Shown here in pieces: positions 1,470 to 17,807 of a stretch of 24,331 nucleotides of DNA (positions are counted from its first letter, which is position 1; each line of letters begins with the position of its first letter). The DNA is from a virus (Duplodnaviria; Heunggongvirae; Uroviricota; Caudoviricetes). Both the position numbers and the translations under genes were made by a program. The DNA is taken from IMG/VR virus record IMGVR_UViG_2778261216_000006, one strand, 5' to 3'. The notes below the pieces were generated by a model. That model was given only the letters and a program-made list of their open reading frames with translations, ran no database searches and was not told the origin of the DNA.

Positions 1470-1540
1470 TTTTATCATTAAACACAACCAACCAATTGAT
1501 TTAATTAAATAAATCTCACTGCAGAAAGTGCCAAAAATCG

Positions 1541-1612: not shown

Positions 1613-1898
1613 AATATACAGGCGGGTAATCTTTCCAGGGGGAAGCGCACCAATTCATGAGGGGCGTTAATGTCGATATGGGGATCCCCATAACGGGGCT
1701 ACCGGATTTTTTTTCCGGTTAACCTTTAATCAGGCTGGTGGGTTTTACATACCCTTGATCACCGTAATGATGATCCAGATGTGCACCTTTTCCACCAATG
1801 GCGGAAAGCTCCAACCGTAACGATGATCGCTATGGTTGCCTCGATGGCCTGCGTGGTCATTATGACCATTCAGAATGTGAGGGATGATGTTTCCGCTC

Positions 1899-2305: not shown

Positions 2306-2309
2306 CACG

Positions 2310-2591
2310 TTACCGCCGTAACCGCTCCGGCTTCTTCCAGTTGTACGTAATTTTCTCTTTCTCCCTGTACATCTCTACACGGCGATTGTAGGCCAGCATT
2401 TCAAGAACGCGGATCCGTATGTCGCGCATATCCGCATCATTAAGCTGGATACCATCACGGCGCATCACCTCAGCAACAACACGCGCATAATTTTCGGCTG
2501 TCACGCTGTCCGGCTGCGTGGTCTGTTCGTCAGCCTGCTGGCTGATTCCAGAGACGCGGCGGATTAATCGCAGTATTTCGGCTTCTGTCAT
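2310..2591 (-). CDS. Hypothetical protein (93 aa) immediately downstream of terminase large subunit
   Basis: ORF begins 14 nt after the TerL stop with a GAGG ~10 nt upstream; no recognisable family. Confidence 0.5.
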   Translation of the reverse strand: MTEAEILRLIRRVSGISQQADEQTTQPDSVTAENYARVVAEVMRRDGIQLNDADMRDIRIRVLEMLAYNRRVEMYREKEKITYNWKKPERLRR

Positions 2592-2604
2592 GCTGCTGAC
2601 CTCA

Positions 2605-4266: not shown

Positions 4267-4606
4267 GCTCGTCCTCTTCTTCTGTTTCCGGTGGATTTTT
4301 ACGGCGGCTTATCGGGTCAAAACCGAGCAAAGAGGCCATTTTTATCATCACTCTTTCAGCGTCGGATTTTGCGCTTAATGCGGGGTTTCTGCTCTCGCCG
4401 CCCTGACTGTTAACAATGCTGAACCCGCGCGCCGCAAGGTCTGCAACGGCTTTCCGGTAAATGGAGTAGTTGACACAATACAGTTCCAGATTGCTCCAGT
4501 CGGCGGGGGTCAGGTCTCCCCGTTCCGCAAGCTGCCTAGATTTTTCCCGCCACTGCTTCACGGCGATATCATCCAGGTAGGCGGGGGCTTTCGGTGGTCT
4601 TGCCAT
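4250..4606 (-). CDS. Phage terminase small subunit (P27-family-like)
   Basis: 118 aa; LELYCVNYSIYRKA and RNPALSAKSDAERVMIKMASLLGFDP match the small-terminase signature; directly upstream of TerL. Confidence 0.85.
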   Translation of the reverse strand: MARPPKAPAYLDDIAVKQWREKSRQLAERGDLTPADWSNLELYCVNYSIYRKAVADLAARGFSIVNSQGGESRNPALSAKSDAERVMIKMASLLGFDPISRRKNPPETEEEDELDRLE

Positions 4607-4728
4607 GCTTATTTTTCGCCAGATTATTTTTCAAAAAATTCCCGTGCATAAAAATTTGAGGAGGCGTTCGGTGCCCGGCGGGGTCGGGTTTGTCCTGAAA
4701 ACGCCCCCCACCCCGTCATACAGCCTCA

Positions 4729-4911
4729 TCAGCGATTGCGGAAACATTCCATAACCTCGCGGTCACGGTCGGTTAATCGCTTCGCTGTGATGCGTTCTGC
4801 GCGTCCTGACGCTTTATCTTTATGCCCTGTTTCCTGTGTCTTCCATGCGTCACGCTGCCTTATAAGTCCACGGATAAGGCGGTTTTGTTCCCGATCATTC
4901 ATCAGCGTCAT
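4729..4911 (-). CDS. Hypothetical small charged protein (~60 aa) between HNH and TerS
   Basis: C-terminal part of track ORF 4729..5133 lying past the HNH stop (MTLMNDREQNRLIRGL...); the start is my estimate. Confidence 0.35.
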   Translation of the reverse strand: MTLMNDREQNRLIRGLIRQRDAWKTQETGHKDKASGRAERITAKRLTDRDREVMECFRNR

Positions 4912-5335
4912 ACATCCAGTTATTGCGGTTAGCGGCCCGTTCTTCCTCTTCACGAAATCCACCTGCGGCACGCTTGCTTTTTGTTGCCGGATCAAGCCAT
5001 TTCGTTTTCTGGTTATGACACGCCTGACACAATGGTTGATGGTTCCATTCGGGCCAGAAGAGAACATCATCACCGCCATTAATCGGGATAATGTGATCCA
5101 CCACCACGGCGGGCGTATATATCCCCTTCTCAAGGCATCGCACGCATAACGGGTTTTTACTCAGATACATGGCGCGGTATTTGTCCCACTGTCTGGAATA
5201 TCCACGCGCGCGGCGGTGTCCTCGTCTGGCATCCTCTGCACGCCATGCCGCCCGCCTGTGCTCTTCACACTTGCCGGATTTAACGCGCCTGTTACAGCCT
5301 GGTTCTGTGCATCGTCTTAATGGTTGCCACGGCAT
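4895..5335 (-). CDS. HNH endonuclease (phage packaging-associated)
   Basis: 146 aa; Cys-rich N-terminus, VVDHIIPINGG and CQACHNQKT motifs. Confidence 0.9.
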   Translation of the reverse strand: MPWQPLRRCTEPGCNRRVKSGKCEEHRRAAWRAEDARRGHRRARGYSRQWDKYRAMYLSKNPLCVRCLEKGIYTPAVVVDHIIPINGGDDVLFWPEWNHQPLCQACHNQKTKWLDPATKSKRAAGGFREEEERAANRNNWMYDADE

Positions 5336-5631
5336 CAGTACACCCCCACATCACGGTAAGCCGTCCAGAGTGCGCCAATCGTCATGGGTACGCGTGTTTT
5401 TGCGTTATCCGCGACAATCTGGCGATTCTCATACAGGTGAGCGATAAACATCATGCAGCCAATCTTTATGGCTGGCGTGAACTCCAGCCCGTCATCAAAG
5501 CGCCTGCCTATGTGTATCTGGCACGCCTCAAGCGATGCGGCAATGTATCCGCTGATTAACTGGTCTTCCTCGTCGCCATCGATGCGGCAATGGAGTTTCA
5601 CTTCTTCCAGGGTGATAAGTTCTTCTGTCAT
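5335..5631 (-). CDS. gp6-like head-tail connector protein
   Basis: 98 aa; LITLEEVKLHCRIDGDEEDQLISGYIAA N-terminus typical of this family. Confidence 0.8.
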   Translation of the reverse strand: MTEELITLEEVKLHCRIDGDEEDQLISGYIAASLEACQIHIGRRFDDGLEFTPAIKIGCMMFIAHLYENRQIVADNAKTRVPMTIGALWTAYRDVGVY

Positions 5632-6008
5632 TTTTCCGCGCCCTCACGACAAAGAATTTCAAGGCGTGTCCTGGCGGCATCCGGCAGCGGCTGCCCGATG
5701 ATATTCAGTACACGCCCCGCCAGCGGCCCCGTACTGACCTTTATCCGGCTGGTGGCGTTGATGTCCTTCCGGTACCGTATCCAGATCCTTACGGTACCAA
5801 TCGCCAGCTCTGCACCCGATGAAATGGCCTCCTTGCTGCTGACCATGTTCACGCTTGCCCAGAGTGTGTGACCGTCCTCCCACGTTTCGAGTATTTCGCC
5901 GGTTATATCCCTGGTCTGTTTCAGGGTCTGAATCGTTATCCTGTCACGCAGTCGCCCTATGTTCATTCCGGTTTTTCTCCCTCGCTGATTTTTACTTCCT
6001 GTTTCCAT
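5628..6008 (-). CDS. Phage head closure / head-tail adaptor protein
   Basis: 126 aa; MNIGRLRDRITIQ ... VRIWIRYR ... pattern; the true start may be the internal Met near 5966. Confidence 0.78.
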   Translation of the reverse strand: METGSKNQRGRKTGMNIGRLRDRITIQTLKQTRDITGEILETWEDGHTLWASVNMVSSKEAISSGAELAIGTVRIWIRYRKDINATSRIKVSTGPLAGRVLNIIGQPLPDAARTRLEILCREGAEK

Positions 6009-7174
6009 GCCTGGCTGAACTCATCACCACCATCACGCGGTGACAGTCCTTCACGTTCGCGGGCTTCGTTCGGACACATAACGCCGGATTTGATGCCGCG
6101 CTCATAGGTGGCAAAGCGTTCGCCAGGTGTGGCCCGTAACAGGTCCGCGCTGTCAAACTCCACCTGATACCGGATACCAGGTACAGGCGAGGCCACCAGC
6201 AGGGCGTTTTTTATCTGCTGCTCAAAGTTCGCCAGCCACGGGCGCATCGTCATGGTGAGAAATGCGCGGCTTGCCTCGCTGAAATTGCTGTAGGTGCTGT
6301 TGCTGTATTCCTGCAAAAAAATCGGCGAGACGTTGAACATTCGGGCGATGTCTTCAATGGTGAAGCGACGGGAGGCCAGCCATTCAGCATCCTGATTACT
6401 CATGCCCAGCTGCTGATAGCTCATACCCCCTTCAAGGATGGGCGTTTTTCCGGCGTTTCTGGCCCCTTTGTAGCGTTCCAGTGCGGCTAATGCCTGTTTG
6501 CCCTTCACGCCGTCCAGCCATTCGCCTGACGTGATAACCCCTGCCGCCATCATGCCATCACGCATCACGCTCGCGCCGTGGCGTTGTTGGGCCAGCCCAA
6601 GCCCCAGCGATTCGCGGCAGATGGTTACAGGTGAGCGCCCCATAAAGCCGTCATCCGTGGAGTAACGAAGGTGAAGTACTTCCCACGGTAAATAGTTGCG
6701 GGTGTTTCCGGTGTAAGCGTCAGTGATGCAGTAGCGCCAGTTGTGTTCGCCTGTCTGCTCCACGTTCACCGACTGCGGCGGGTAAGGATGTAAAGCCACC
6801 GGAAAACCATCACGCCCCCACTGAATCACCGCATAAGCATTACCGTTTAACAGGCAGTGGCGGATCATCATTCGCTTAAACTGGTAGGGAGTCTGCCACG
6901 CGTTCGGGCGCTCGTTGAGGATGTGATCGACCGGATGAGAATCAAGCCACTCGCGGGCCTCCTTCCCCTTCTCATTGCGTACCAGGTACAGGTAACACGG
7001 CATGGTAGCCACCGCCTCAGAGATGACCGTGACGGCGTTCATAACGGCGGGCAGTGATTCCGCTGTCCCCGATGATACGTACTCACCCGCCCCCGTGTTC
7101 GATGTGCCAGCCAGCGCCATAAACTCATCAAGCGTCATGCTGCGCTGCTCTTTTTTTCTTCTGAAAGGCCACAT
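5963..7174 (-). CDS. Phage portal protein, HK97 family
   Basis: 403 aa; size and conserved blocks of the portal family; lies between protease and head closure genes. Confidence 0.9.
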   Translation of the reverse strand: MWPFRRKKEQRSMTLDEFMALAGTSNTGAGEYVSSGTAESLPAVMNAVTVISEAVATMPCYLYLVRNEKGKEAREWLDSHPVDHILNERPNAWQTPYQFKRMMIRHCLLNGNAYAVIQWGRDGFPVALHPYPPQSVNVEQTGEHNWRYCITDAYTGNTRNYLPWEVLHLRYSTDDGFMGRSPVTICRESLGLGLAQQRHGASVMRDGMMAAGVITSGEWLDGVKGKQALAALERYKGARNAGKTPILEGGMSYQQLGMSNQDAEWLASRRFTIEDIARMFNVSPIFLQEYSNSTYSNFSEASRAFLTMTMRPWLANFEQQIKNALLVASPVPGIRYQVEFDSADLLRATPGERFATYERGIKSGVMCPNEAREREGLSPRDGGDEFSQAWKQEVKISEGEKPE

Positions 7175-7175
7175 A

Positions 7176-7748
7176 TCACACCCCCGCTAAATCCACCCAC
7201 CAGCGGCGATTATCCGCACGCGGCATTTTTTCGGGGTGCTGCTCATACAGGGAACGGCGGGCCAGCTCCACGCCGGAATCGGGGTAAGCCGGTACCGATG
7301 TAACGGTAATTTCGTACAGTTCCGCCACCAGCACGGTGCGCACGCATGGATCTGTTGTGGTATCCCATACATCCTTACGGGAGCGAAAGCCAAAGCTCAT
7401 CCCCGAGATGTCCCCACGCTTAACCAGTTCGATAACGTCGCGCCCTGTACTGGTATCCGGTGGGGTCAGTTCAAAGCGTAACCCTGTTTCGTCCTCTTCC
7501 AGTTTCAGCGTGCCGGAACGGGTGCGCCCCAGTAACATGCTGTGGTCATGCTCATACAGGCCGCGAACGTCATTACCCGCCGCAAGCCATTCAGTAAACG
7601 CCCCCCGCTGGAATTTTTCGTAAAACTCACCCCATAACAGTTCTGAAAGCTTATCCCAGCGAACAACGTAGCCCGTCAGCGTACCGGCTCCGCTGGTGGT
7701 GATTTCCGATGACCGGATTTCCATACTCTTCATAATTTTTTCACCCAT
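7176..7748 (-). CDS. HK97-family prohead serine protease
   Basis: 190 aa; TLTGYVVRWDKLS, HDHSMLLGRT and GMSFGFR blocks. Confidence 0.9.
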   Translation of the reverse strand: MGEKIMKSMEIRSSEITTSGAGTLTGYVVRWDKLSELLWGEFYEKFQRGAFTEWLAAGNDVRGLYEHDHSMLLGRTRSGTLKLEEDETGLRFELTPPDTSTGRDVIELVKRGDISGMSFGFRSRKDVWDTTTDPCVRTVLVAELYEITVTSVPAYPDSGVELARRSLYEQHPEKMPRADNRRWWVDLAGV

Positions 7749-7787
7749 AAAACACTAAAGGGGCTTTTAAGCCCCTTCTGTATGCTG

Positions 7788-8993
7788 TTAATCGTCGTCC
7801 TGTGGCAGTTCCAGAATCTTGATCGCGTTCGAATCCACCACGCCACCGCCTAAATATTTCTGCGTGAAAATTTTGATGAAGCCCGGCTCTGTGAGGTTGT
7901 CCGGTCTGGTGCGAACACCTGTTTCGTGATCAACAATGTAGTAACCGCGTTTGAAGTCACCCAGGGCAATAACGTTATCAGGCATAAACTCCAGATATTC
8001 GACCGGAAGGCCCAGCAACGTATCAGGATCACCCGCCTGTAAACGGTCGCGCCAGATGTAATCACCGTTCGCGTTCTTCACCTTCTGAAGTTTTGCCGCC
8101 GTCGTGGAGTTAACCACCCAGACCGCGTTTTTGCGGTATTTTTTACGTAATGCAAATTTCAGGTCGATCAACGGGTCCGCAGATGTCCACGCCAGAGATT
8201 CGGAAGGTTTAATTACCTGCAACGTACCAAAATCACGCTCTTTGTCGTTCTTCTCTGCACGGGGTACGGATAAAAAACCTTTTGCTTTTTTGTCACCGTC
8301 GCCCACAACCAGATCGCTTTCTTCGGTTTCCGTGAAGGTGTCGCCAATCTCACCCGTCAGCCATGAAAGGATGTCCACATCGGAAAAATCCACGATTTCC
8401 TGTGTGGTGCGCGGGTACGCATAGACCGGATACAGCTTAATGCTCACCTCGTTAATCTGCGGGGTGCTGGTCTGTTCGCGTGTCTTACCCTCTTCACCGT
8501 GGTTAACGGTCGCACCGCCAGCGGAAACAAGCTGCTTAAACTCGTTGCTGCTGATTTTCTTCACGGTACAGATGCGGCGCATGGTGGACTCATCCGCCAG
8601 CATTCGCATGATTTCGGTGTTCAGCTCGGGGATAACGGTATAACCACCATCAGCGGGAACGCCTGTACTTAATGCGCGGGTTTCACCCGTCAGAATGTAG
8701 TTTCGTAGTTCTGCGGGGTCAGTGGTCTGACTGCTTTTACCTGGCTTGCTGCGCTCTTCGTCTGCAATGGCTTCAAGGCGGGAAATGTCTTTATCGAGGG
8801 ATTCAGCTTTAGCGCGTAATTCGTCAAATTTTGCGCCCTCAGCATCGTTAAGACTGCGGTTTTCTTTTTCCGCGTTCTCCAGCATGTCGCGCATCTGATT
8901 TTTAATGGCGGTTTTCTGCTGGCGTAATTCGATTATTCTCGGCATAAAAAAAGTCCTGGGGTTAAGTAAGGAACTCCAGGACGCGGCAAACAC
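7788..8993 (-). CDS. Major capsid protein, HK97 family
   Basis: 401 aa; N-terminal coiled-coil delta-domain-like region, then a conserved HK97-fold body; start (GTG at 8993 or internal Met) uncertain. Confidence 0.93.
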   Translation of the reverse strand: MFAASWSSLLNPRTFFMPRIIELRQQKTAIKNQMRDMLENAEKENRSLNDAEGAKFDELRAKAESLDKDISRLEAIADEERSKPGKSSQTTDPAELRNYILTGETRALSTGVPADGGYTVIPELNTEIMRMLADESTMRRICTVKKISSNEFKQLVSAGGATVNHGEEGKTREQTSTPQINEVSIKLYPVYAYPRTTQEIVDFSDVDILSWLTGEIGDTFTETEESDLVVGDGDKKAKGFLSVPRAEKNDKERDFGTLQVIKPSESLAWTSADPLIDLKFALRKKYRKNAVWVVNSTTAAKLQKVKNANGDYIWRDRLQAGDPDTLLGLPVEYLEFMPDNVIALGDFKRGYYIVDHETGVRTRPDNLTEPGFIKIFTQKYLGGGVVDSNAIKILELPQDDD

Positions 8994-9035
8994 TCAACCG
9001 TTTTTCATAAGGAAATCAGCAATCGCACCGATCGT

Positions 9036-9083
9036 TTTCCCGCCTGGTAATGAATATTGGCGAGCACATTAACAGGCGGGAAA
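9036..9083. promoter_or_regulatory. 11-bp perfect inverted repeat TTTCCCGCCTG / CAGGCGGGAAA with 26-nt spacer in the leader of the capsid operon
   Basis: Read directly; located 45-90 bp upstream of the capsid gene start. Confidence 0.35.
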
Positions 9084-9157
9084 GTGGCCCCAGCGTCCTG
9101 GCACCACGGGCGAGAATAATCATGATTCAGTTCGGGTAAAATATGCCGATCCGCTCA

Positions 9158-9189
9158 GTGAACAACGTGGAACAACCACGAACAAATAA
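9158..9189. promoter_or_regulatory. Dyad motif GTGAACAACGTGGAACAACCACGAACAA upstream of the capsid operon
   Basis: Contains palindrome CGTGG-AACAA-CCACG; near-identical copy, inverted, at 15115-15145; half-sites inside both att arm repeats. Confidence 0.4.
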
Positions 9190-9226
9190 TTTACAAAAAA
9201 TAACAAAAAGCCGGATTGCTCCGGCT
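9190..9226 (-). terminator. Rho-independent terminator (hairpin AGCCGGAGCAATCCGGCT plus T-run on minus strand)
   Basis: Stem-loop followed by TTTTTGTTATTTTTT on the minus strand, just downstream of ORF 9246..9470. Confidence 0.6.
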
Positions 9227-9245
9227 GTATGTGCTGTATGGGTGC

Positions 9246-9470
9246 TCAGTCTCTGATCCCTTTCAGAAATTCTATCAATGCATCTGTCTGTTCAGGATTT
9301 ACTGCCAGCATTTCACCGGATAGCGCGCAACGAACAAAACCATGATGATCCTTTTCAATCAGCGCCCCCGTTTCCAGAAATGCGCGGTAATCAGTGATAT
9401 TCATCGTCTCCATGTTGTCAGCATGGTATTTATCACGCTGTTTAAGTATCTCATCAAATTTCATCGGCAT
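9246..9470 (-). CDS. Hypothetical protein (74 aa), moron-like gene flanked by two copies of the same terminator
   Basis: Internal Met of track ORF 9246..9548, preceded by GAGGAAAACGCA; no family recognised. Confidence 0.55.
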   Translation of the reverse strand: MPMKFDEILKQRDKYHADNMETMNITDYRAFLETGALIEKDHHGFVRCALSGEMLAVNPEQTDALIEFLKGIRD

Positions 9471-9562
9471 TGCGTTTTCCTCTGTTGTGTCTGTTTGTTT
9501 CAGATAGTAACTATGCCGGACCGTGACGAAAAGCCAGTAGTGCTCCATACCGTTTCAAATGA

Positions 9563-9588
9563 CGCAAAAAAGCCGGATTGCTCCGGCT
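9563..9588 (-). terminator. Rho-independent terminator (second copy of AGCCGGAGCAATCCGGCT hairpin)
   Basis: Same hairpin plus T-run on the minus strand, downstream of the PerC-like gene. Confidence 0.6.
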
Positions 9589-9610
9589 GCGTGGTGTGGT
9601 TCTGATATTC

Positions 9611-9859
9611 CTACTCAGCTAATTTGCTCAGCCCCATGTCTGCGTAAGTGCGATTTACTGCATTTCTCAGGTCTGCGTAGTTCTCCGTTGGCGGCTCCGG
9701 TGGCCTCTGTGCCTTCCTGGAACATTCCAGCCGTCGCATCGTAACCTGATGCCGTTCCTTGTCTGTCTCCACCAGTTGCATGACTTCACCCCATCGCGCC
9801 GACGCCCTCCGGTAAAATCCTTTCGCCTCGAGTTCCTCCGCTATGCGGTCATGTACCAT
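9611..9859 (-). CDS. PerC-family-like transcriptional regulator (82 aa)
   Basis: Start at internal Met with strong SD (GAGGGGGTGA); MVHDRIAEELEAKGFYRRASARWGEVM resembles the PerC-family N-terminus (from memory). Confidence 0.5.
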   Translation of the reverse strand: MVHDRIAEELEAKGFYRRASARWGEVMQLVETDKERHQVTMRRLECSRKAQRPPEPPTENYADLRNAVNRTYADMGLSKLAE

Positions 9860-9869
9860 CGTCACCCCC

Positions 9870-10280
9870 TCAGAACGGAATACCGTCACCGTAAGGGTCA
9901 TCGCCTCCCGCTGGTGGCTGATTACCCTGTGTGCCTGTGGTTTTGCGTCTGTTCCCGCCTGGACGTGCCGCGCGGGCACTGATTACGCTGTCTGCAATAA
10001 CCTGATACCCCCGCCGCGTTTCCCCGTTCTGTCCGGTCCACTGGCTTACCTGCATCGTGCCGGATACGCTGGCAACATCGCCTTTTTGATGTTTAGCCAG
10101 GAAATCGGCCTGTTTGCCAAATGCGATAACCGATAACCATAACGTCGCCTGTCCGTCCTGTGCCTGGCTGCATGGCAAAGATACCGCCATACGCGCCAGC
10201 GTCATCGGTGTGCCCTTGCTGGTCTGTTTTACCTGCGGGTCGTCCACCAGCCGCCCGTAAGCCGCTATCTGTGCTGTCAT
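9870..10280 (-). CDS. Single-stranded DNA-binding protein (SSB-like)
   Basis: 136 aa; OB-fold core blocks, Gly/Pro-rich linker and acidic C-terminal tip ending DGIPF; ATGA overlap with the upstream gene. Confidence 0.8.
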   Translation of the reverse strand: MTAQIAAYGRLVDDPQVKQTSKGTPMTLARMAVSLPCSQAQDGQATLWLSVIAFGKQADFLAKHQKGDVASVSGTMQVSQWTGQNGETRRGYQVIADSVISARAARPGGNRRKTTGTQGNQPPAGGDDPYGDGIPF

Positions 10281-10528
10281 GCTGTCTGCTCTCCGGTTTT
10301 AACGTTGATTGTTGTTACCTGTTCCGCTTCGGCAATCTCCCGTTCTGTCAGCGTGGCAAAGTTTGCCGCCGCTGTTGTCATGAATGCGCTTATCAGTTCG
10401 GGATGCTCCTTCGCGTATCCTTCCCCCGCGTGGCGGTCTATCGTTCTGATTGCCACCTTTAAAGCCAGTTCAGCCATATCTAACGCCTTATATTTCGGCT
10501 CTGTTCTGTCTCTGCGTTTTTGGGTCAT
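10277..10528 (-). CDS. Hypothetical protein (start uncertain, 66-84 aa)
   Basis: Track ORF 10277..10558 overlaps the iterons at its 5' end, so an internal Met (10528 or 10477) is the likely start; translationally coupled to ssb. Confidence 0.5.
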   Translation of the reverse strand: MTQKRRDRTEPKYKALDMAELALKVAIRTIDRHAGEGYAKEHPELISAFMTTAAANFATLTEREIAEAEQVTTINVKTGEQTA

Positions 10529-10540
10529 TTCTCGCAACCT

Positions 10541-10730
10541 CTCACTTTTTCGCCTCACTTTTTCAAGCGTCTCACTTCGTCGCAGTTGGGATTTTTGGTT
10601 TTTCTATGTGTGTGTTTCATAAGTATTTTTTTACCCCTCACTTTTGAGGATGTATACAGGTCGAAAAGTGAGGGAGAGCAGGCTAATTTTGGCCCTCTTT
10701 CCACCCCCCTCGCTTTTGCTCCTCACTTTT
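10541..10730. repeat. Iteron array (CTCACTTTT repeats, at least 6 copies in both orientations) with AT-rich spacer: candidate island replication origin
   Basis: Copies near 10541, 10554, 10571 (variant), 10637, 10665 (inverted), 10709 (variant), 10722; immediately downstream of the replication helicase gene. Confidence 0.55.
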
Positions 10731-12138
10731 ATAGCGGCGCTACATCATCCCCATCGATACGAATAACCCCATCTTTTTCCAGCTTGTACAGCCAGCGCCG
10801 GAAGTTTTTCATTTCATACCCCAGTTTTTTCATGTCATCACGTAACAGCGGGATCGTGCACTTGTCGCCGTTCTGTGTGCGTGAACGGATGCACCCCCAT
10901 AGCGCGGTATGGTTTTCCGTCTTGTTCCCTGCCTCCTCGATGCGCTCCAGTTCAACGGGAGGGCGCGGCTTATCCACCACCACCAGCGACGTGATTAACT
11001 CCCCGTCAGCGTCGGTAAAAAGCTCCACCACCCGCAAATCATAGGCAGCCTCTTTGAGTTCCTCCGCGTCCTTCATTTTGGTGCATGAGATAACCAGCGC
11101 TTCGCTTCCTGCGTCCTCCCTGCGTATCCGGTATTCAGCATCCAGTGATGCACGAAATGCACTGGAACCGCGCGCGCCTTTCGTCTCATCCTTGCCGGAA
11201 TGGTGAACCACCAGCACCGTGGCCCCTGTGCGTCGTTTCAGTTCGTCACACCCACGGATAAACGCCCCCATGTCGCGGGAGTCATTTTCATCATTGCCGC
11301 CAAAGCAGCGCGCCAGCGTGTCCAGAATAATCATGCGAACAGGTTTACCCGTTTCCCTCTCCACCTGACTGGCAGCAATAACCAGTTCATCAACATCAAG
11401 CGGGACAGCCGGAAAGATGGGACGGTTTACCAGATACAGATTTTTCACCTGCTCACCGTGCACAACCTCCCAGGCTTTTACACGACGCGGAACGCCGATA
11501 CCGCCTTCACCAACCACATAGAGAACAGCGCCATGCGCCACCCTGCGGCCTCCCCACTGGCGGCCCGTGGAAACGTGACACGCCCACGATCCGGCAAGGA
11601 ATGATTTATAGGAACCGCTCGCCCCGTATATGCTGCAAAGCGACGATGCCGGAATAATCCCCTTTACCACGTAATCAAGCTGTGTGTCGTATCCGGTAGA
11701 TCCAACGCTCATCGGTAGCGTGGTTTTTCGCTGGGGAATTTTTTTCATGACCAGGCTTTCCCCGCGTTCCCATGCCTCCCTAAGCCGTGGAAGCTGGTCG
11801 CTCCATTCCTCCAGCAATTCGAAATTTTCAGAAAGTAGCCGCGCCTCCTGGACTCCGGCGATCGCCAGTTTCGTGGCGATGGTTAACAGCTGCGGCTCTT
11901 CAATATTTCCGGCGCGTATCACCGTCGCCCTGTATCGCCCATCATCAACAATCTGGAGGTTATCCAGTTCGCTTAACTGATAACGCCCCAGATAAACGGG
12001 AGGGACTGGATCGCCTGCTTTTTTGGCCTGTGCAATGATGTAATGCTCTGCGAATGAGTGAGCATCAATACCCGCAAAAATAATCGCATCGGTGTATTTG
12101 TCTTTCGGTAATAGTTTTACGTTCGGTGCCAGTTTCAT
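10729..12138 (-). CDS. Replication protein, RepA-like AAA ATPase/helicase (satellite pri-rep type)
   Basis: 469 aa; Walker A (YGASGSYKSF), Walker B (RMIILDTL), VVHHSGKDETKGARGSSA block. Confidence 0.85.
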   Translation of the reverse strand: MKLAPNVKLLPKDKYTDAIIFAGIDAHSFAEHYIIAQAKKAGDPVPPVYLGRYQLSELDNLQIVDDGRYRATVIRAGNIEEPQLLTIATKLAIAGVQEARLLSENFELLEEWSDQLPRLREAWERGESLVMKKIPQRKTTLPMSVGSTGYDTQLDYVVKGIIPASSLCSIYGASGSYKSFLAGSWACHVSTGRQWGGRRVAHGAVLYVVGEGGIGVPRRVKAWEVVHGEQVKNLYLVNRPIFPAVPLDVDELVIAASQVERETGKPVRMIILDTLARCFGGNDENDSRDMGAFIRGCDELKRRTGATVLVVHHSGKDETKGARGSSAFRASLDAEYRIRREDAGSEALVISCTKMKDAEELKEAAYDLRVVELFTDADGELITSLVVVDKPRPPVELERIEEAGNKTENHTALWGCIRSRTQNGDKCTIPLLRDDMKKLGYEMKNFRRWLYKLEKDGVIRIDGDDVAPL

Positions 12139-12434
12139 TTTTTACCCCTGAATCCGTTAATCATGGTTTTCAGCTTCTGGATGTTTGCCCGTGCCCTGGC
12201 GTTGCTGGTGGGCACGTTATGCGGCGCGGTCTGTACCAGAGAAAAATCACGCCGGAACTGATAAACAGGCATCACGCAATCATATTCGTAACCTTCACGG
12301 CGGTAAGTTACGCACCGTCCCGCCACGCCCTTAATCATTACCATGCCGCCGTACTGGTCGCGGTAAATATCACCGCGCGTAAATTTAGGGTGAGTGTTGC
12401 CACTGGCAGTTAAGCCAGAATATTTAAGTTTCAT
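12135..12434 (-). CDS. Hypothetical protein (99 aa)
   Basis: GGAGA SD ~9 nt upstream; stop overlaps the rep start (ATGA). Confidence 0.55.
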   Translation of the reverse strand: MKLKYSGLTASGNTHPKFTRGDIYRDQYGGMVMIKGVAGRCVTYRREGYEYDCVMPVYQFRRDFSLVQTAPHNVPTSNARARANIQKLKTMINGFRGKK

Positions 12435-12439
12435 TATTT

Positions 12440-12670
12440 TTATTCTCCGGTGTGGGGCGCGTTATTATTTTCGTGAATTGCCATTGCCTTATCCAGTTCA
12501 TCAATAACAGGCGATAGTAATGTCTGAATGGCTGCAAACATTAATGACGAAGATTCTTCGCCAGATTCCGGCACTTCAATTAATTTGCCTAACAACGCAT
12601 TCATTTCCTTTGCGCGGATTAATGCGTTTTCAGAGTGGATTAATACTTCAAAAGGGATTTTATGCATCAC
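12440..12670 (-). CDS. Hypothetical protein (76 aa)
   Basis: AAGGGAG SD upstream; tightly packed in the operon. Confidence 0.5.
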   Translation of the reverse strand: MMHKIPFEVLIHSENALIRAKEMNALLGKLIEVPESGEESSSLMFAAIQTLLSPVIDELDKAMAIHENNNAPHTGE

Positions 12671-12890
12671 AAATTTTCTCCCTTATTCTTTTAATGTCCT
12701 CATTAAGGATGTCTGTAACTTTTATCAGCGAGTTTTTGGCAATTATTTTTATTGTTTTAAGTTTTCTTTTGTCGTGCTCCGACTGTGATTTTCTCTCCAT
12801 GCTCTCCACCATGTGGGTAACATCAACGAGCGCACGTATCAGTATTTGCATTGCTTCTTCTGCTGCGTCCGGTGTGGTTTTATTGTGCAT
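12660..12890 (-). CDS. Hypothetical protein (76 aa), first gene of the replication operon
   Basis: Internal Met of track ORF 12660..12932 with strong SD (AGGGGGAAACCT). Confidence 0.5.
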   Translation of the reverse strand: MHNKTTPDAAEEAMQILIRALVDVTHMVESMERKSQSEHDKRKLKTIKIIAKNSLIKVTDILNEDIKRIREKICDA

Positions 12891-13122
12891 AGGTTTCCCC
12901 CTGGCGAATACGGGCGGCAAATACAGCAACACAACCGGACGGGCAACGGTTACGCGCTTCGCGTTCCGTCCAGGCGGTTACGTGGATGATTTGACGTTCT
13001 GACGCGCCAAAGGCAATAAAGCGCCAGATGTATTTATTCAGGTTGTGCGAGTCCCGCCCTTGCGGGTGTGTGGTATGATTTCTCATAGCTACCTCGATAC
13101 TATTGCTATCGTTGGTGGTTAG

Positions 13123-13156
13123 ACGCCCCGTATGTGTGCCACCACTGCGGGGCGTT
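13123..13156 (+). terminator. Conserved hairpin GACGCCCCG...CGGGGCGTT (copy 1) bounding cassette 1
   Basis: 8-bp GC-rich stem; near-identical copy at 13860-13896. Confidence 0.45.
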
Positions 13157-13167
13157 GCCTTTTGGTG

Positions 13168-13208
13168 CAAGTCACCTTTAAAGGCTATGCTACTTTCAGG
13201 TGACTTGC
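13168..13208. promoter_or_regulatory. 11-bp perfect inverted repeat GCAAGTCACCT / AGGTGACTTGC (operator-like) upstream of cassette 1
   Basis: Read directly; followed by a T-rich tract and TATACT -10-like hexamer (~13241). Confidence 0.4.
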
Positions 13209-13276
13209 ACTTCAAGCCTTTTTTTATTTTTTTTTCTGCGTATACTGAACGCCACCTAACAGTAAGGAGGCCAGTA

Positions 13277-13456
13277 ATGCCAACGGGTACAACCAACAAC
13301 AAATCACAACAAAAAACGGCTAGAGTTCCTCTAGAAGTTTTAAGCGAAATGAATTTGGTCAAAGAAGAAAACGAAACAGACGCGCAATTCATCGTTACAG
13401 CCATGCGCGGCGAAATCAAACGCCGCCAGCGCCGCAAGGCCAAAGAATCAGAATAA
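13277..13456 (+). CDS. Arc-like ribbon-helix-helix DNA-binding protein (59 aa)
   Basis: Strong SD AAGGAGG 6 nt before ATG; RVPLEVLSEMNLVKEENETDAQFIVTAM matches the Arc pattern (P-x-E-V-L ... EEN). Confidence 0.55.
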   Translation: MPTGTTNNKSQQKTARVPLEVLSEMNLVKEENETDAQFIVTAMRGEIKRRQRRKAKESE

Positions 13457-13461
13457 TCACT

Positions 13462-13505
13462 ATCAGCGCCGTGGTGTGAGGAACTCCGGCGCATTGCTTT
13501 ACAGG
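13462..13505 (+). promoter_or_regulatory. Conserved 44-bp intergenic element ATCAGCGCCGTGGTGTGAGGAACTCCGGCGCATTGCTTTACAGG (copy 1)
   Basis: Contains stem GCGCCG/CGGCGC; second copy at 14146-14189 with a single mismatch. Confidence 0.5.
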
Positions 13506-13513
13506 GCAGCACT

Positions 13514-13741
13514 ATGAACGAACACACATCATCACCGGAAAACGGCGAAAGCACGTCAACATATGAAATCATCCGGCAAAGGCAGTCAGAAGCCTGCGCC
13601 AGACTTGAGGAAGAACTAACCAGAACAAAAATACCACCACCAGCGCCGCGCTTAGTGCCACCAGAAAAATTTGCCCTTGAAGATTTTGTCGATAAATACC
13701 CACGGCGGCTTAAATCCGGCAAAAACCGACCGCCAGGATGA
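13514..13741 (+). CDS. Hypothetical small protein (75 aa), partner of the Arc-like gene
   Basis: ATG 9 nt after the conserved element; shares F-A-x-x-x-F-V-D-K-Y-P-R-R block with the 14198..14401 product. Confidence 0.4.
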   Translation: MNEHTSSPENGESTSTYEIIRQRQSEACARLEEELTRTKIPPPAPRLVPPEKFALEDFVDKYPRRLKSGKNRPPG

Positions 13742-13859
13742 GTGCACAAAACCGAACTATGAAACGGATTATTCCGTTTCCGGGGCGTTTGTGTGTGTAT
13801 AAAGAGTAAGCTATGCTCTTTTATAGCCATAATCGTTACCTCAATTAATGGTTTGGTTA

Positions 13860-13902
13860 GACGCCCCGTATGTGTTCCCATCACTGCGGGGCGTTGTTTT
13901 TT
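13860..13902 (+). terminator. Conserved hairpin GACGCCCCG...CGGGGCGTT plus T-run (copy 2), between cassettes
   Basis: Stem followed by GTTGTTTTTTG. Confidence 0.5.
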
Positions 13903-13945
13903 GTGCTAGTTGTGTGTAATGTGTATATACACATAAACACATTAT

Positions 13946-14140
13946 ATGGGTGTAATTGACGTGTCAACACACAAAAATGAAAGGCGTGGTAATCCTCCTT
14001 TCCAGTTCCGTTTAGATCCTGACTTACGGGAAAAGATGGAAAAAGCACAACAACAAGACGGTGATGACTCTTTAGCTGCTTGGATAAAACGAATAATCCG
14101 AAAAGAATTACAGCAACGCGGTATTGAACCCAAAGAATAA
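13946..14140 (+). CDS. Arc-like ribbon-helix-helix DNA-binding protein (59-64 aa)
   Basis: PPFQFRLDPDLREKMEKAQQQDGDDSLAAWIKRIIRKE follows the Arc pattern (from memory); start ATG 13946 or GTG 13961; palindrome ATGTGTATATACACAT just upstream. Confidence 0.55.
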   Translation: MGVIDVSTHKNERRGNPPFQFRLDPDLREKMEKAQQQDGDDSLAAWIKRIIRKELQQRGIEPKE

Positions 14141-14197
14141 AAAACATCAGCGCCGTGGCGTGAGGAACTCCGGCGCATTGCTTTACAGGTACACACA

Positions 14198-14401
14198 ATG
14201 ACCAATAAAGAATCAACCAATACACCATCGCAAAAAACGAACAGAGAGCACGAAAATATGGCGCTCGAGCATGAATCAGAAAGATTCGCTCCATGCGCTT
14301 TTGTCCTTGATGAGTTTCTAAAAAAATATTCACGTTCTGAACGGATGAAAATGGCAGCACAATACGGCCCCAACAAGCAAGGTAATTGCCCACCAGCCTG
14401 A
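14198..14401 (+). CDS. Hypothetical small protein (67 aa), paralogue of the 13514..13741 product
   Basis: Same position relative to the conserved element; shared FxxxxFVLDEFLKKYSR block. Confidence 0.4.
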   Translation: MTNKESTNTPSQKTNREHENMALEHESERFAPCAFVLDEFLKKYSRSERMKMAAQYGPNKQGNCPPA

Positions 14402-14473
14402 TAGCGGCTATCATTCCCGTGCTTATGTTTGGGATCACATACACATAAGGCGCAGCAGGTTAATTGTTCAGAA

Positions 14474-14506
14474 AGGCGGCTCCATATCGGGGCCGCTTTT
14501 TTTATG
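14474..14506 (+). terminator. Rho-independent terminator ending the plus-strand cassettes
   Basis: GCGGC...GCCGC stem followed by TTTTTTT. Confidence 0.55.
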
Positions 14507-14644
14507 CCTGAAAAACCCCAATTTTGTTGTTTTTCAGTTTCACCAGGGCGAACGAATCCCCGCCCACGTTCGGGCGCATATTCAATCTTCATAGTTATAT
14601 CTCTGTATTAGTGGATGTGTGGCGACTGTGTGCCGCCAGTCTTT

Positions 14645-14833
14645 TTAGTGAACTGCCTTGCAGCTATCCTTCCAGGCCAAAACCTCAGATAAAGACCAGC
14701 CAACAGAACGCCCACCAAGTTTACGACGTGATGGGAATTGTCCGGCCTTTTCCAGGCGGTAGCGGCATGAGCGGCTAAGGCCTGTTAGCTTTTCGCATTC
14801 TTTTTCACGTATAAACCGATCAGTGCTTAACAC
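14645..14833 (-). CDS. alpA: AlpA-family phage regulatory protein (Xis-like activator)
   Basis: 62 aa; LSEVLAWKDS-type C-terminus typical of the AlpA family; sits just downstream of the integrase as in PICIs. Confidence 0.88.
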   Translation of the reverse strand: MLSTDRFIREKECEKLTGLSRSCRYRLEKAGQFPSRRKLGGRSVGWSLSEVLAWKDSCKAVH

Positions 14834-14995
14834 TATTGCCCCCTTTCGTTTCTTAAAGAGTTATTTCGTGTTCTATTGCGTTGGGATGTGTCTGATTGTG
14901 TCAGGATGATTCAGAGTTGGCAAATGTTGGTGTCGCATGGTTTACAGAAAGAGGAATAATCAGGATAAAATCATTTAAATTCATGTTAATACAAA

Positions 14996-15030
14996 GGCAT
15001 AAAATCTTGTTTTATGCCTTTTTTCGCACG
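14996..15030. terminator. Hairpin GGCATAAAA-TCTTG-TTTTATGCC with flanking T-run between int and alpA
   Basis: 9-bp perfect stem followed by TTTTTT on the plus strand; weaker T-tract on the minus strand. Confidence 0.45.
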
Positions 15031-15114
15031 CTTTAACGCGTAATTCACTAATGTATAAAAAACCAGTCACACAAATAAAATCAGTCACTTATAAACCTGC
15101 GTACTTTTTCGCCT

Positions 15115-15145
15115 CTTGTTCGTGGTTGTTCCACGTTGTTTCACA
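15115..15145. promoter_or_regulatory. Inverted copy of the GAACAACGTGGAACAACCACGAACAA dyad motif
   Basis: Reverse complement matches 9158-9189 over ~28 bp; ~70 bp downstream of the int stop. Confidence 0.4.
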
Positions 15146-15207
15146 TTGTTCGCCGTTGTATCTGTGTGCTTATCCAGTATACGCATACTGAAAAAACACG
15201 AAAAAAA

Positions 15208-16458
15208 TTATTTTCTTCTGGCTGCTGGTAGTGCGGTTACGTTTTCATGTGTTCCCGCCAGTATCCCTAACCGCTCCGTCCACATATCCAGCGCATTGCG
15301 TTTAGCATCCAGATAACGGGAATGATTATAAACTCGCTGCATTCCTGGCATCTGGTGGCCTGTAAGCTGCTCCACGACGTGCGGATCAACGCCTAAATCG
15401 TTCAGCATGGTTGTAAAGGTGCGCCGGATGTCATGCAGTGACCAGTGAGGGTGTTTAAGCCTCCTGTGCGCTAATCTGCCGTACTGCGACACGCTGGTTT
15501 CCTGTTTCACTTCCCCCAGCAATAAGCCCGTGTGCCTGTTCTGCTCCACCAGCTGCGTGATGAACGGCAGTATCGCTTCCGGTATGGGCCGGAATATGGC
15601 TACCTTCGTTTTACTGTGCTCCTTCGGAACGGTCCAGAGCATTTCGGTAAAATCCCACTCGCCGATCTCAGATAACCTAAGTTCGACCGTCCGGCATCCG
15701 AACACAATCAGGAGGCGGATTAGCGCGATGTAGTAGGGGGAGAATATTTTTTTGTCCAGTGCCTGCAATAATTCGCCAAGTTCTTTGTTGCTTAAGACAC
15801 GCTCGCTTATATCCGGTTTTTTCCCAACGTCAGCCACACTCATATCATCAAGAACGTTGCTGATTGCATAGCGCCGCTTCCTGCAGAACTTAAGCGCCTG
15901 CTTGCATGTCTGTAGCAGGAACCCGGCGGAAACAGGGGCTTTCTTTGCCACCCGATCAAAACAGGCCAGCCAGTGCCGTAGCTCGCATTTATCCAGCGGC
16001 ATAGGGCCAATGTGCTGTATTACGTGATTATTTAGCCGCTTTTTCAGTGGGTCATAATCCACACGGTTTTCCTTTGCGTACGACTCAAGCCAGTAGGTGA
16101 GCGCATCGCCAACCGTTACAGGCTTTAACGCTTCCTGTACGGAGTAATTCATCTCATGGCGTGGATTTTTCCCTTCTGCCAGCCATGCACGACACTGGGC
16201 GGCTTTTTCCCTGGCTGATTTCAGGCTCAGATCAGGATAATTTCCCAGCTTAATGCGTTCCGGTGGTGCCCCCCTTCCCGCTCCGGCCCTGTAAGTGAAA
16301 TACCAGGTTAAAAGGCCGCTGGTTGAATGCCTGACACTCAGGTTTCCACCGTCATTAAGAAAGGCTGTTTTTTGGGCGGGTGTGCCGTTGATTTTCCTTA
16401 GCTGTGTATCGCTCAGTTTGTTAAGTGCTCTGCTCATAATTTTGAATCCGGTCATCAC
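15208..16458 (-). CDS. int: Tyrosine recombinase/integrase, P4-like family
   Basis: 416 aa; N-terminal arm-binding-like region, catalytic-domain blocks (HDIRRTF, LGHQMPG-type); start codon uncertain (GTG 16458, ATG 16455 or 16437). Confidence 0.94.
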   Translation of the reverse strand: MMTGFKIMSRALNKLSDTQLRKINGTPAQKTAFLNDGGNLSVRHSTSGLLTWYFTYRAGAGRGAPPERIKLGNYPDLSLKSAREKAAQCRAWLAEGKNPRHEMNYSVQEALKPVTVGDALTYWLESYAKENRVDYDPLKKRLNNHVIQHIGPMPLDKCELRHWLACFDRVAKKAPVSAGFLLQTCKQALKFCRKRRYAISNVLDDMSVADVGKKPDISERVLSNKELGELLQALDKKIFSPYYIALIRLLIVFGCRTVELRLSEIGEWDFTEMLWTVPKEHSKTKVAIFRPIPEAILPFITQLVEQNRHTGLLLGEVKQETSVSQYGRLAHRRLKHPHWSLHDIRRTFTTMLNDLGVDPHVVEQLTGHQMPGMQRVYNHSRYLDAKRNALDMWTERLGILAGTHENVTALPAARRK

Positions 16459-16535
16459 AATTAACTACACCATTAACTACACCGATCGTTGCACAAAGGG
16501 CTACAACGTGAAACAAGCTGGAACAAGAAAAATCA
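16455..16535. repeat. Right arm-type repeat (ATTAACTACACCATTAACTACACCG ... GAAACAAGCTGGAACAA)
   Basis: Direct repeat of 1541-1612, between the int start and the attR core. Confidence 0.5.
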
Positions 16536-16608
16536 CAAATCTGTTTATAATCAAAAACATAACGCACAACCTGAAACATTATGAAACGGCAAAAAACACT
16601 AATTGATA

Positions 16609-16618
16609 AAATATGTCC
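16609..16618. repeat. attR core (AAATATGTCC)
   Basis: Direct repeat of 1460-1469. Confidence 0.5.
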
Positions 16619-16685
16619 ATACTTCACGCATTACGTTAAGCATCCGTTATAATCGGTTGCAGATACCAGCCTGTGGATGCTTAAC

Positions 16686-17807
16686 ATGGAATACCAACTC
16701 ACTCTTAACTGGCCCGATTTTCTTGAACGTCACTGGCAGAAACGCCCGGTGGTGTTAAAACGCGGCTTTAATAATTTTATTGACCCGATCTCTCCAGACG
16801 AGTTGGCGGGTCTGGCGATGGAAAGCGAAGTTGACAGTCGACTGGTCAGTCACCAGGATGGCAAATGGCAGGTCAGCCACGGCCCGTTCGAAAGCTACGA
16901 TCATCTCGGTGAAACCAACTGGTCATTACTGGTACAGGCAGTGAACCACTGGCATGAGCCGACCGCCGCGCTGATGCGACCGTTCCGTGAACTACCGGAC
17001 TGGCGTATTGATGATCTGATGATCTCTTTTTCTGTACCGGGCGGCGGCGTCGGCCCGCATCTCGATCAGTACGACGTGTTTATCATTCAGGGTACCGGTC
17101 GTCGTCGCTGGCGAGTGGGCGAAAAGCTGCAAATGAAACAGCACTGTCCGCACCCGGATCTGTTACAGGTCGATCCGTTCGAAGCCATCATCGATGAAGA
17201 GCTGGAGCCTGGCGATATTCTTTATATTCCGCCAGGATTCCCGCATGAAGGCTACGCGCTGGAAAATGCGATGAACTATTCCGTGGGTTTTCGCGCGCCA
17301 AATACGCGGGAATTAATTAGCGGATTTGCCGATTATGTGCTGCAACGTGAACTGGGCGGCAACTACTACAGCGATCCGGATGTTCCACCTCGCGCTCATC
17401 CTGCGGACGTTCTGCCGCAAGAGATGGATAAACTGCGTGAGATGATGCTCGAATTGATCAACCAGCCGGAACACTTTAAGCAATGGTTTGGCGAGTTTAT
17501 ATCCCAGTCACGTCATGAACTGGATATCGCGCCGCCGGAACCGCCTTATCAGCCAGATGAAATCTACGATGCGCTGAAACAAGGTGAAGTGCTGGTGCGC
17601 CTGGGTGGTCTGCGCGTATTGCGCATTGGCGACGACGTGTATGCCAATGGTGAGAAGATCGATTCCCCGCACCGTCCGGCACTGGATGCACTCGCCAGCA
17701 ACATTGCGCTGACTGCGGAGAATTTTGGCGATGCGCTGGAAGATCCGTCATTCCTCGCGATGCTCGCGGCGCTGGTCAATAGCGGGTATTGGTTCTTCGA
17801 AGGGTAA
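16686..17807 (+). CDS. roxA: Ribosomal protein L16 arginine hydroxylase (JmjC/cupin oxygenase) RoxA/YcfD
   Basis: Protein MEYQLTLNWPDFLERHWQKRPVVL... recognised as YcfD; track ORF starts 3 codons upstream. Confidence 0.93.
   Translation: MEYQLTLNWPDFLERHWQKRPVVLKRGFNNFIDPISPDELAGLAMESEVDSRLVSHQDGKWQVSHGPFESYDHLGETNWSLLVQAVNHWHEPTAALMRPFRELPDWRIDDLMISFSVPGGGVGPHLDQYDVFIIQGTGRRRWRVGEKLQMKQHCPHPDLLQVDPFEAIIDEELEPGDILYIPPGFPHEGYALENAMNYSVGFRAPNTRELISGFADYVLQRELGGNYYSDPDVPPRAHPADVLPQEMDKLREMMLELINQPEHFKQWFGEFISQSRHELDIAPPEPPYQPDEIYDALKQGEVLVRLGGLRVLRIGDDVYANGEKIDSPHRPALDALASNIALTAENFGDALEDPSFLAMLAALVNSGYWFFEG

Follow-up and report, generated by a model that had tools for sequence, protein, structure and literature searches.

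How might a phage satellite that builds its own capsids bring excision, the expression of its regulator and capsid production under one control? The question is raised by a 24,331-nucleotide stretch of DNA from a virus record (IMG/VR IMGVR_UViG_2778261216_000006; Caudoviricetes), hereafter the window, which holds an island of 15,149 bp (positions 1470–16618) lying between 10-bp core copies and between Escherichia coli phoQ and roxA. Judged by gene content, the island is a capsid-forming phage-inducible chromosomal island (cf-PICI) of the EcCIEDL933 type. In four places it carries an array of short direct repeats set one helical turn apart: one in each arm of the attachment site, one between the integrase gene int and alpA, and one upstream of the capsid operon. 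With modest confidence, drawn from sequence, a structural model and analogy with known excisionases, we favour on balance the reading that the four arrays are putative AlpA boxes that would act in excision, in the control of alpA by its own product and, in islands that form capsids but not in others, on the capsid operon.

The first-pass annotation of this DNA had reported a sequence near 9158–9189 that recurs, inverted, near 15115–15145, and this was borne out by a match of 25–26 nt: GAACAACGTGGAACAACCACGAACAA is exact at 9160–9185 (+), and its reverse complement lies at 15116–15141 with a single mismatch at the outermost base, so that 25 nt are perfectly complementary between the two sites (0/100 shuffles gave such a match). 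The 17-mer GAAACAACGTGGAACAA is exact at 1584–1600 and at 15126–15142 (−), with two overlapping copies in the right arm (16500–16516, three mismatches; 16510–16526, two mismatches); the window holds six matches in all, against 0.12 expected. Underlying these matches is a simpler unit, a head-to-tail direct repeat of ACAA in 10-bp phase (consensus approximately GGAACAAC), of which each array has three to six copies, all units of any one array sharing the same orientation. The half-sites that had been described in both arms are thus present as related sequence, but actually form arrays of three and four units. Chains of at least three units number five in the window, compared with a mean of 0.05 in 300 first-order Markov simulations, no simulated chain reaching five units, and the 9.2 kb of flanking chromosome within the window contain none. 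Occurrence of the arrays by chance is excluded.

Conservation was assessed in whole islands from E. coli genomes (L001, L002, L006 and L007, the last being EcCICFT073), a Shigella locus (L003), 80 viral-contig loci picked by AlpA similarity and 78 loci picked by capsid similarity, array presence being scored with a three-unit cut. An AlpA scan of genome contigs yielded three loci only, and in a pattern scan of viral contigs for five-unit arrays the matches listed were dominated by giant-virus tandem repeats. A motif search in related islands had been suggested by the earlier annotation, and it found the motif conserved in approximately 170 of them. Across 42 distinct array alleles, 126/139 spacings were exactly 10 bp and a further 12 were 11 bp. 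The int–alpA array, of 3–6 units on the alpA strand, is present in nearly all islands whose AlpA is ≥90% identical, and in an alignment of the whole int–alpA spacer (A1) the invariant array columns are the (A)ACAA cores and their immediate flanks, the spacer bases varying; the EcCICFT073 allele has six units with unrelated spacers. Arrays occur whether the replication module has a RepA helicase, a P4-type primase or a D5-type primase, irrespective of the presence of PerC and of which accessory genes the island holds. The capsid-upstream array precedes, by approximately 170–210 bp, HK97-type capsid genes of 62–100% protein identity (in three AlpA-selected cf-PICI loci, L068, L082 and L091, it falls below the three-unit cut), and PICIs whose capsid gene is of the lambda-E type, EcCICFT073 among them, lack it. 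As judged from this distribution, the capsid-upstream array is a component of the HK97-type capsid module.

The fifth chain of the window, three units at 13286–13315 (+) with the sequence GGTACAACCAACAACAAATCACAACAAAAA, lies inside orf334 and antisense to it. Since only one other locus of the set shares this sequence, and L001, L002, L006 and L007 lack it, the chain probably reflects an A/C-rich stretch of coding sequence and not a site.

The comparison also disposes of the architecture first proposed for the shared sequence, a dyad CGTGG-AACAA-CCACG, which would make it a palindromic operator through which a dimeric regulator, for example a PerC-family protein, controls the capsid operon. The palindrome is literally there, at 9166–9180 and 15121–15135, and a PerC-family gene (9611–9979) lies just upstream of the capsid region. 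However, the CGTGG/CCACG arms are kept in few alleles, and the 25-nt identity of the two internal sites is peculiar to this one; most alleles lack the palindrome (for example TGTGGAACAACTACG, CCTGGAACAACCACG and CCACGAAAGAACACG) while keeping cores and phase. Inverted-repeat symmetry being absent from most alleles and direct-repeat phase retained, the dyad operator was rejected. PerC was rejected as the binder because islands without it retain arrays: L038 and L078–L080 keep the capsid array, and L006 keeps the others. This explanation as a whole is barely credible. What the first annotation got wrong was the dyad; its choice of binder is probably right.

The island ends are fixed at 1470–16618 because in-silico removal of that interval restores the empty phoQ–roxA site with 100% identity over 420 bp; the resulting junction was covered to at least 80%, in a single piece, by 4822/5426 complete E. 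coli genomes, and the arrays are present in about one E. coli genome in seven (759–787/5426). The arm repeats had been regarded as att repeats, a view that does not hold: they are two copies of a 75-nt module (1543–1617 and 16459–16533, 77% identical), both inside the island, and the att core is the 10-bp AAATATGTCC. The module occurs once in each arm (P and P′) of the reconstructed attP and consists of two ACTACACC copies at 12-bp spacing followed by an ACAA array, doublet and array being 10–20 bp apart in both arms. ACTACACC is found four times in the window against 0.34 expected, two per arm and none elsewhere, with doublet centres 93 and 140 bp from the core. The doublets are confined to the attP arms, as arm-type sites are, and are likely integrase arm-type sites; the ACAA arrays, in contrast, also lie at 9159–9206 and 15113–15162. 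The P′ arm array is kept at the far island end with either capsid module, and the P arm array is kept in islands integrated elsewhere (tqsA, fis) and is therefore island DNA.

Doublet sequence differs among integrase clades (ACTACACC, CTGACCACAC, GTGATACAC, TGGTCCAAA, GGTTGCATGA, TGTATTGC), while phased TGTT(C/T)-type units remain beside the changing doublets, Geobacter and a single metagenomic contig whose flank is high in GC included. This favours the doublets as integrase arm sites and the array as the target of another, more conserved factor. Doublet type did not covary cleanly with how similar the Int arm domains are overall: L086 (60%) has another doublet, and L008 and L082 (54–61%) keep ACTACACC. 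In L225, about 30 bp upstream of the int start, a motif published for helper-embedded PICIs (HE-PICIs), TGTGTATTGCA, occurs twice beside TTGTTCG-type phased units, and other far relatives (L011, L005) show the same layout of phased units, clade-specific doublet (TGGTCCAAA, GGTTGCATGA) and int.

The roles of the two elements might be exchanged, the ACAA arrays being arm-type sites for the N-terminal domain of Int, the doublets being sites for AlpA or another factor, and the internal copies extra Int sites (for autoregulation or synapsis, for example). The arm-type sites of the lambda tyrosine integrase are likewise helically phased direct repeats in both arms, Int of this island carries an Arm-DNA-bind_3 domain, and arrays and int always occur together. 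HE-PICIs, too, have a tandem-doubled 8-bp motif, co-oriented in both arms at approximately 80 and 130 bp from the attP centre, and the report leaves undecided whether Int or AlpA binds it (Tommasini, Mageeney and Williams 2023, PMC10111431). Nevertheless, two of the arrays lie approximately 1.45 kb and 7.5 kb from the core, upstream of alpA and the capsid operon, where Int has no known role; it is the doublets that are restricted to the arms and that vary more among integrase clades; a published AlpA-responsive fragment, described below, contains an array and no doublet; and the capsid array goes with the capsid module, not with int. An exchange of roles is, on this evidence, unlikely.

AlpA is the best candidate for the factor that reads the arrays, because array geometry matches that of winged-helix excisionases, AlpA is conserved and a PalpA fragment that responds to AlpA holds an array. 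An AlphaFold2 model of the protein (predicted local distance difference test score 86.8) has three helices and two strands arranged as a winged helix, and its best fold matches were GIsul2 excisionase (TM 0.83–0.90), RdfS, Pukovnik Xis and TorI (structures 8c3t, 8dgl, 4j2n and 1z4h); AlpA thus models as a winged-helix protein of the excisionase, or recombination directionality factor (RDF), family. RDFs of this fold attach in head-to-tail fashion to direct repeats spaced by one turn, binding with high cooperativity and bending the DNA; for Apl, Cox, Vis and RdfS, the operators used at att serve at promoters as well (PMC7498355, PMC11963761). The present arrays are head-to-tail repeats one turn (10–11 bp) apart, they lie beside putative Int arm doublets, and a winged-helix RDF gene adjoins int; arrays also lie in conserved positions upstream of alpA and the capsid operon, where they may act on promoters whose positions are taken from consensus only. 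AlpA was present in every island sampled, and AlpA-like genes were also detected in most capsid-selected loci.

Published work on E. coli PICIs adds that AlpA is needed for induction and activates its own promoter, and that overexpressed AlpA alone causes excision and replication without phage; alpA is also essential for induction of the prototype cf-PICI (bioRxiv 10.1101/2022.09.08.507074). When the published primers were mapped, the AlpA-activated PalpA-lacZ fragment of EcCICFT073 (pJP2038) corresponded to L007 18129–17674, which holds a six-unit array and no doublet.

According to the mechanism proposed, AlpA would coat each array cooperatively, one monomer per helical turn, and bend the DNA. 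Helper-phage infection would raise alpA transcription; AlpA would then fill the arrays beside the doubled ACTACACC sites in both arms, giving attL and attR the shape needed for excision, and fill the 5–6-unit array upstream of alpA, giving positive feedback. In capsid-forming islands only, it would also fill the three-unit array at approximately −57 to −77 of the capsid/packaging promoter, leading to capsid production. That excision is coupled in this way to capsid expression, through one protein, we can only infer from the arrangement of the sites. A bolder version, which we put forward tentatively and stop short of calling probable, would have AlpA form filaments and work as a master switch, reading a single code of 10-bp phase at its four sites for excision, self-amplification and direct firing of the capsid/packaging promoter, the whole cycle being timed by one helper-triggered protein and the capsid module having been captured by gaining three AlpA boxes beside an older, widely conserved promoter element.

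Several observations weigh against AlpA as the binder. One of the locus sets was selected by AlpA similarity, which makes the constancy of AlpA there partly a matter of construction. AlpA left Pint-lacZ expression unchanged in published assays, though that fragment carries the P-arm doublet and array; an architectural rather than a transcriptional role at the P arm would fit this result. In marine PICMI satellites AlpA is an excisionase without any change in transcription. No clean covariation was seen between AlpA sequence and the motif, TGTT/ACAA-type units occurring from 45 to 100% AlpA identity, and islands with clade-B AlpA (45–53% identity) still carry ACAA-type units, L222 even a full capsid array. 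The most conserved part of the capsid-upstream element, an AT-rich pair of units, is kept across AlpA clades and could belong to another factor. Finally, approximately 190–240 bp, including a hairpin that resembles a terminator, separate the int–alpA array from the best-conserved alpA promoter downstream of it, an odd arrangement for a simple activator.

Two AlpA-family matches were found in some capsid-forming islands (L224–L226, L231, L238, L244, L245 and L285), mostly about 300 bp apart upstream of the capsid gene and comprising an N-terminally extended (clade B) and a short protein; in L285 the second match is on the opposite side of the capsid gene. A link to the AlpA antiterminator of Pseudomonas aeruginosa, considered on account of terminator-like hairpins in both leaders, was rejected, as only the name is shared: the P. 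aeruginosa protein is an eight-helix, 21Q-like protein (DNA contacts numbered to H142) whose recognition site lies between −35 and −10 and which is loaded onto RNA polymerase, whereas the island AlpA is a 62-residue winged helix of three helices and two strands.

Upstream of the capsid operon, the distance of approximately 170 bp first given for the shared sequence agrees with the 167 bp measured to GTG 8993, and becomes 215 bp to ATG 8945, the start homologous to that of relatives. The three canonical units lie near −57, −67 and −77 from the inferred capsid start. The candidate promoter, read by eye, has equivalents of the form TTTAC(A/T/C)-16-TAnnTT at the same place in diverged capsid modules, again compared by eye; consensus promoter scans returned nothing near the capsid array, leaving the candidate at 9113–9140 unflagged, or in the P arm. 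Beyond the canonical units lies the AT-rich pair, which reads TTTGTAAATTATTTGT on the transcribed strand. Many of the 78 capsid-selected loci have the pair, and across that set it is better conserved than any other part of the element upstream of the capsid operon. The distance of the pair to a conserved leader hairpin, GTGGCACTCAGACGTGAGCCGCCAC, is 88–89 bp in 49/50 loci having both and 90 bp in this module. The fixed distance holds even where a terminator, and not ACAA units, fills the gap.

It might be asked whether the arrays, or the AT-rich pair at the least, are the target of a host protein that recognises helically phased direct repeats or bent AT-rich DNA, such as Fis, IHF or a response regulator of the OmpR family, which would tie island expression to host physiology. 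The motif is nearly unchanged across AlpA of 45–100% identity and across integrase clades, the AT-rich element keeps its 88–90-bp distance from the leader hairpin in 50/51 cases, and GTAAATTATTTGTTC (minus strand, 9186–9201) fits on direct reading the degenerate Fis core consensus GNNNAWWWWWTNNNC. Fis works together with Xis in lambda excision. That consensus is, however, so degenerate that chance alone should give about six matches in a window; head-to-tail arrays in strict 10-bp phase, with as many as six units, are atypical for Fis or IHF; the invariant C within ACAA points to base-specific reading and not to an A-tract bend; and the flanking chromosome is devoid of arrays. A host factor, most plausible for the AT-rich pair, is on the whole unlikely.

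A separate layer of control may act on the capsid leader. The inverted repeat reported there at 9036–9083 is present, with arms of 17 nt and not 11 (9036–9052 and 9067–9083, 94% complementary), and the leader folds with a minimum free energy of −66.4 kcal/mol (z = −4.8; 0/200 shuffles fold as well). Diverged capsid modules have another hairpin-rich leader with the invariant 25-nt 5′ hairpin GTGGCACTCAGACGTGAGCCGCCAC. RNA-level control via the leader, distinct from the ACAA arrays, is plausible from these folds. ATG 8945 has no obvious Shine–Dalgarno sequence.

Between int and alpA, the best-conserved sigma-70-like promoter, TTGCCA-17-(C/A)ACAAT, is retained in three diverged alleles of alignment A1. 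Its −10 hexamer holds an ACAA core, with a GACACA unit 10 bp later. The hairpin lying between the array and alpA, terminator-like in both directions, is probably the int terminator. No meaningful match was returned by an Rfam search of 8800–16700.

Transcription of alpA depends on a helper phage, the inducer being left unnamed in the published work; no published AlpA binding site, and no helper inducer for E. coli PICIs, whether then or identified later, was found in the literature searched. This leaves room for a helper-phage activator that binds the arrays and switches on alpA and, in capsid-forming islands, the capsid operon. Lambda, a proven EcCICFT073 helper, has no array of ≥3 units in its 48.5 kb, and a lambda protein of this specificity would therefore lack a site of its own; moreover, a recombination factor accounts more readily for arrays in both att arms, and overexpressed AlpA alone induces excision and replication in the absence of phage. 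Such an activator appears improbable.

Another possibility is that the island initiator uses the arrays as replication-origin iterons, in an arrangement like that of P4, where ori and crr lie on either side of the alpha operon. Two arrays flank the early operon, the 9160 array has an AT-rich stretch next to it, and TTGTTC is similar to TGTTCACC, the P4 iteron. PICI origins, however, are published as lying directly 3′ of the rep gene, where the window has separate repeats: at 10546–10730, directly 3′ of the RepA-type helicase, TTTT(n)C(n)CCTCACTTTT occurs three to four times at intervals of 83–85 bp. Similarly, D5-primase islands (L091) carry TGTTCACC iterons right after the primase in addition to ACAA arrays. 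Since the same arrays accompany three unrelated replication modules, and separate repeats or iterons stand 3′ of rep, origin iterons were rejected as an extremely improbable explanation.

The wider gene content supports the class assignment. Every island gene is encoded on the minus strand and, from the int side, the order is int, alpA, a variable zone, RepA/AAA_25 helicase, DUF4222, single-stranded DNA-binding protein (SSB), PerC-family gene, orf100 and capsid, followed by prohead protease, portal, head completion protein, connector, HNH, TerS and TerL (small and large terminase subunits); the right chromosomal flank is roxA, then pepT and potAB (Pfam and matches to annotated E. coli genomes). 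The island thus has int, alpA, replication genes and a full capsid and packaging set without tail genes, in approximately 15 kb and at a specific att site, as a cf-PICI should. Coordinates are collected in Table 1.

Table 1. Positions of the arrays and other features in the window.
Feature	Position	Strand	Remarks
phoQ	1–1461		left chromosomal flank; stop codon 1459–1461
att core, left copy (attL junction)	1460–1469		AAATATGTCC, 10 bp
P′ arm doublet	1548–1567	+	ACTACACC twice, 12-bp spacing
P′ arm ACAA array	1584–1613	+	3 units; cores 1587/1597/1607
TerL	2605–4266	−	Pfam
HK97-type capsid gene	7788–8993 from GTG 8993, or 7788–8945 from ATG 8945	−	
Capsid-operon leader	8945–9108	−	5′ hairpin 9107–9084; 17-bp stem 9083–9036; hairpin and U7 directly before ATG 8945
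Candidate sigma-70 capsid promoter	9113–9140	−	−35 TTTACC (9140–9135), 16-bp spacer, −10 TATTCT (9118–9113); read by eye
Capsid-upstream ACAA array	9159–9185	+ (antisense to capsid transcription)	3 canonical units; cores 9162/9172/9182
AT-rich distal pair	9186–9206	+	ACAAATAATTTACAAA(AAATAACAAA); ACAA cores 9193/9203, 11/10-bp spacing
Intrinsic terminator ending early (alpA to orf100) operon	9209–9226	−	just upstream of array; identical copy 9571–9588
PerC-family gene	9611–9979	−	just upstream of capsid region; Pfam
RepA/AAA_25 helicase	10729–12138	−	Pfam
alpA	14645–14833	−	62 aa; PF05930, E = 5e-18
Sigma-70-like promoter before alpA, best conserved	14895–14923	−	TTGCCA-17-CACAAT
Conserved hairpin between int–alpA array and alpA	14993–15021		terminator-like in both directions
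int–alpA ACAA array	15113–15162	− (alpA strand)	5 units; cores 15116/26/36/46/56; ~280–330 bp upstream of alpA start
int, tyrosine integrase	15208–16458	−	Arm-DNA-bind_3 (N-terminal) and Phage_integrase domains, Pfam
P arm doublet	16464–16483	+	ACTACACC twice, directly upstream of int start
P arm ACAA array	16490–16529	+	4 units; cores 16493/16503/16513/16523; between doublet and core
att core, right copy (attR junction)	16609–16618		AAATATGTCC, 10 bp

Three further repeat regions were seen. In the non-coding stretch of approximately 700 bp between the P′ arm and orf93/TerL, positions 1899–2273 hold four 37-nt repeats, all of which contain a small palindrome (CCTCAAATTGAGG type), and a 42-nt repeat (2055–2096 and 2188–2229) is interspersed among them; this could be a packaging (cos) region or a further binding platform. 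An identical 23-nt terminator sequence occurs at 9205–9227 and 9567–9589, either side of orf100, a gene labelled ‘trigger factor’ in RefSeq matches. Because islands without orf100 pass directly from PerC to a single terminator copy, it seems that orf100 entered as a cassette, through recombination at the terminator. Downstream of alpA, in the variable Icd-like/Bro zone, a 68-nt direct repeat (13450–13517 and 14134–14201, 85% identical), for which there was no Rfam match, may be related to the immunity-RNA repeats described for P4-like elements.

cf-PICIs are a recently recognised and widespread class of phage satellite, and in the literature searched no description was found of how they switch on their capsid genes or of where AlpA acts. 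For each step of the cycle, be it excision, alpA feedback or capsid expression, the arrays offer a defined cis-element that can be mutated. Should AlpA bind them, the satellite would join Apl, Cox, Vis and RdfS as a case of an excisionase doubling as a transcription factor, here extended to structural genes, and the motif could help in annotating the attP arms and AlpA regulons of satellites. Should it not, the arrays would point to a host or helper factor, with a bearing on how helper phages induce Gram-negative PICIs.

Set against known systems, the island follows the EcCIEDL933-type cf-PICIs in its order of int, alpA, replication, SSB, PerC, HK97-type capsid, protease, portal, connectors, HNH, TerS and TerL, in its size of approximately 15 kb and in having no tail genes; the paper on these islands (Alqurainy et al., bioRxiv 10.1101/2022.09.08.507074) does not describe cis-regulatory elements for the capsid operon or AlpA, and the arrays are added anatomy. 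The doubled attP motif of HE-PICIs resembles the ACTACACC doublets, L225 having the exact published motif TGTATTGC next to TTGTTCG units, but is a different element from the ACAA array, and neither the neighbouring phased units nor the internal copies are in that report (PMC10111431). The closest parallel is with the dual-function RDFs (186 Apl, P2 Cox, P4 Vis, ICEMlSymR7A RdfS and KplE1 TorI), in which a small winged-helix protein encoded next to int likewise uses one-turn direct repeats as operators at att and at promoters (PMC7498355, PMC11963761); Vis of satellite P4 is an AlpA homologue according to the published E. coli PICI work. The usual layout in these elements has an array in one arm, whereas here both attP arms have one, each paired with an Int-type doublet, and the extra array stands before a structural (capsid/packaging) operon and not at a lysis–lysogeny switch. 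Apl and Cox repress, while AlpA, whose binding here is a prediction, is reported as an activator. The Xis micro-filament on X1-X1.5-X2 with Fis in lambda attR similarly occupies head-to-tail sites that lie between the core and an Int arm site, and in the present case a Fis-type site may be next to them; lambda Xis, however, is confined to one arm and has no promoter-activating role of this kind. Two points set this island apart: in both att arms the Int-type doublets have arrays beside them, and one array stands before a capsid operon that the satellite itself encodes.

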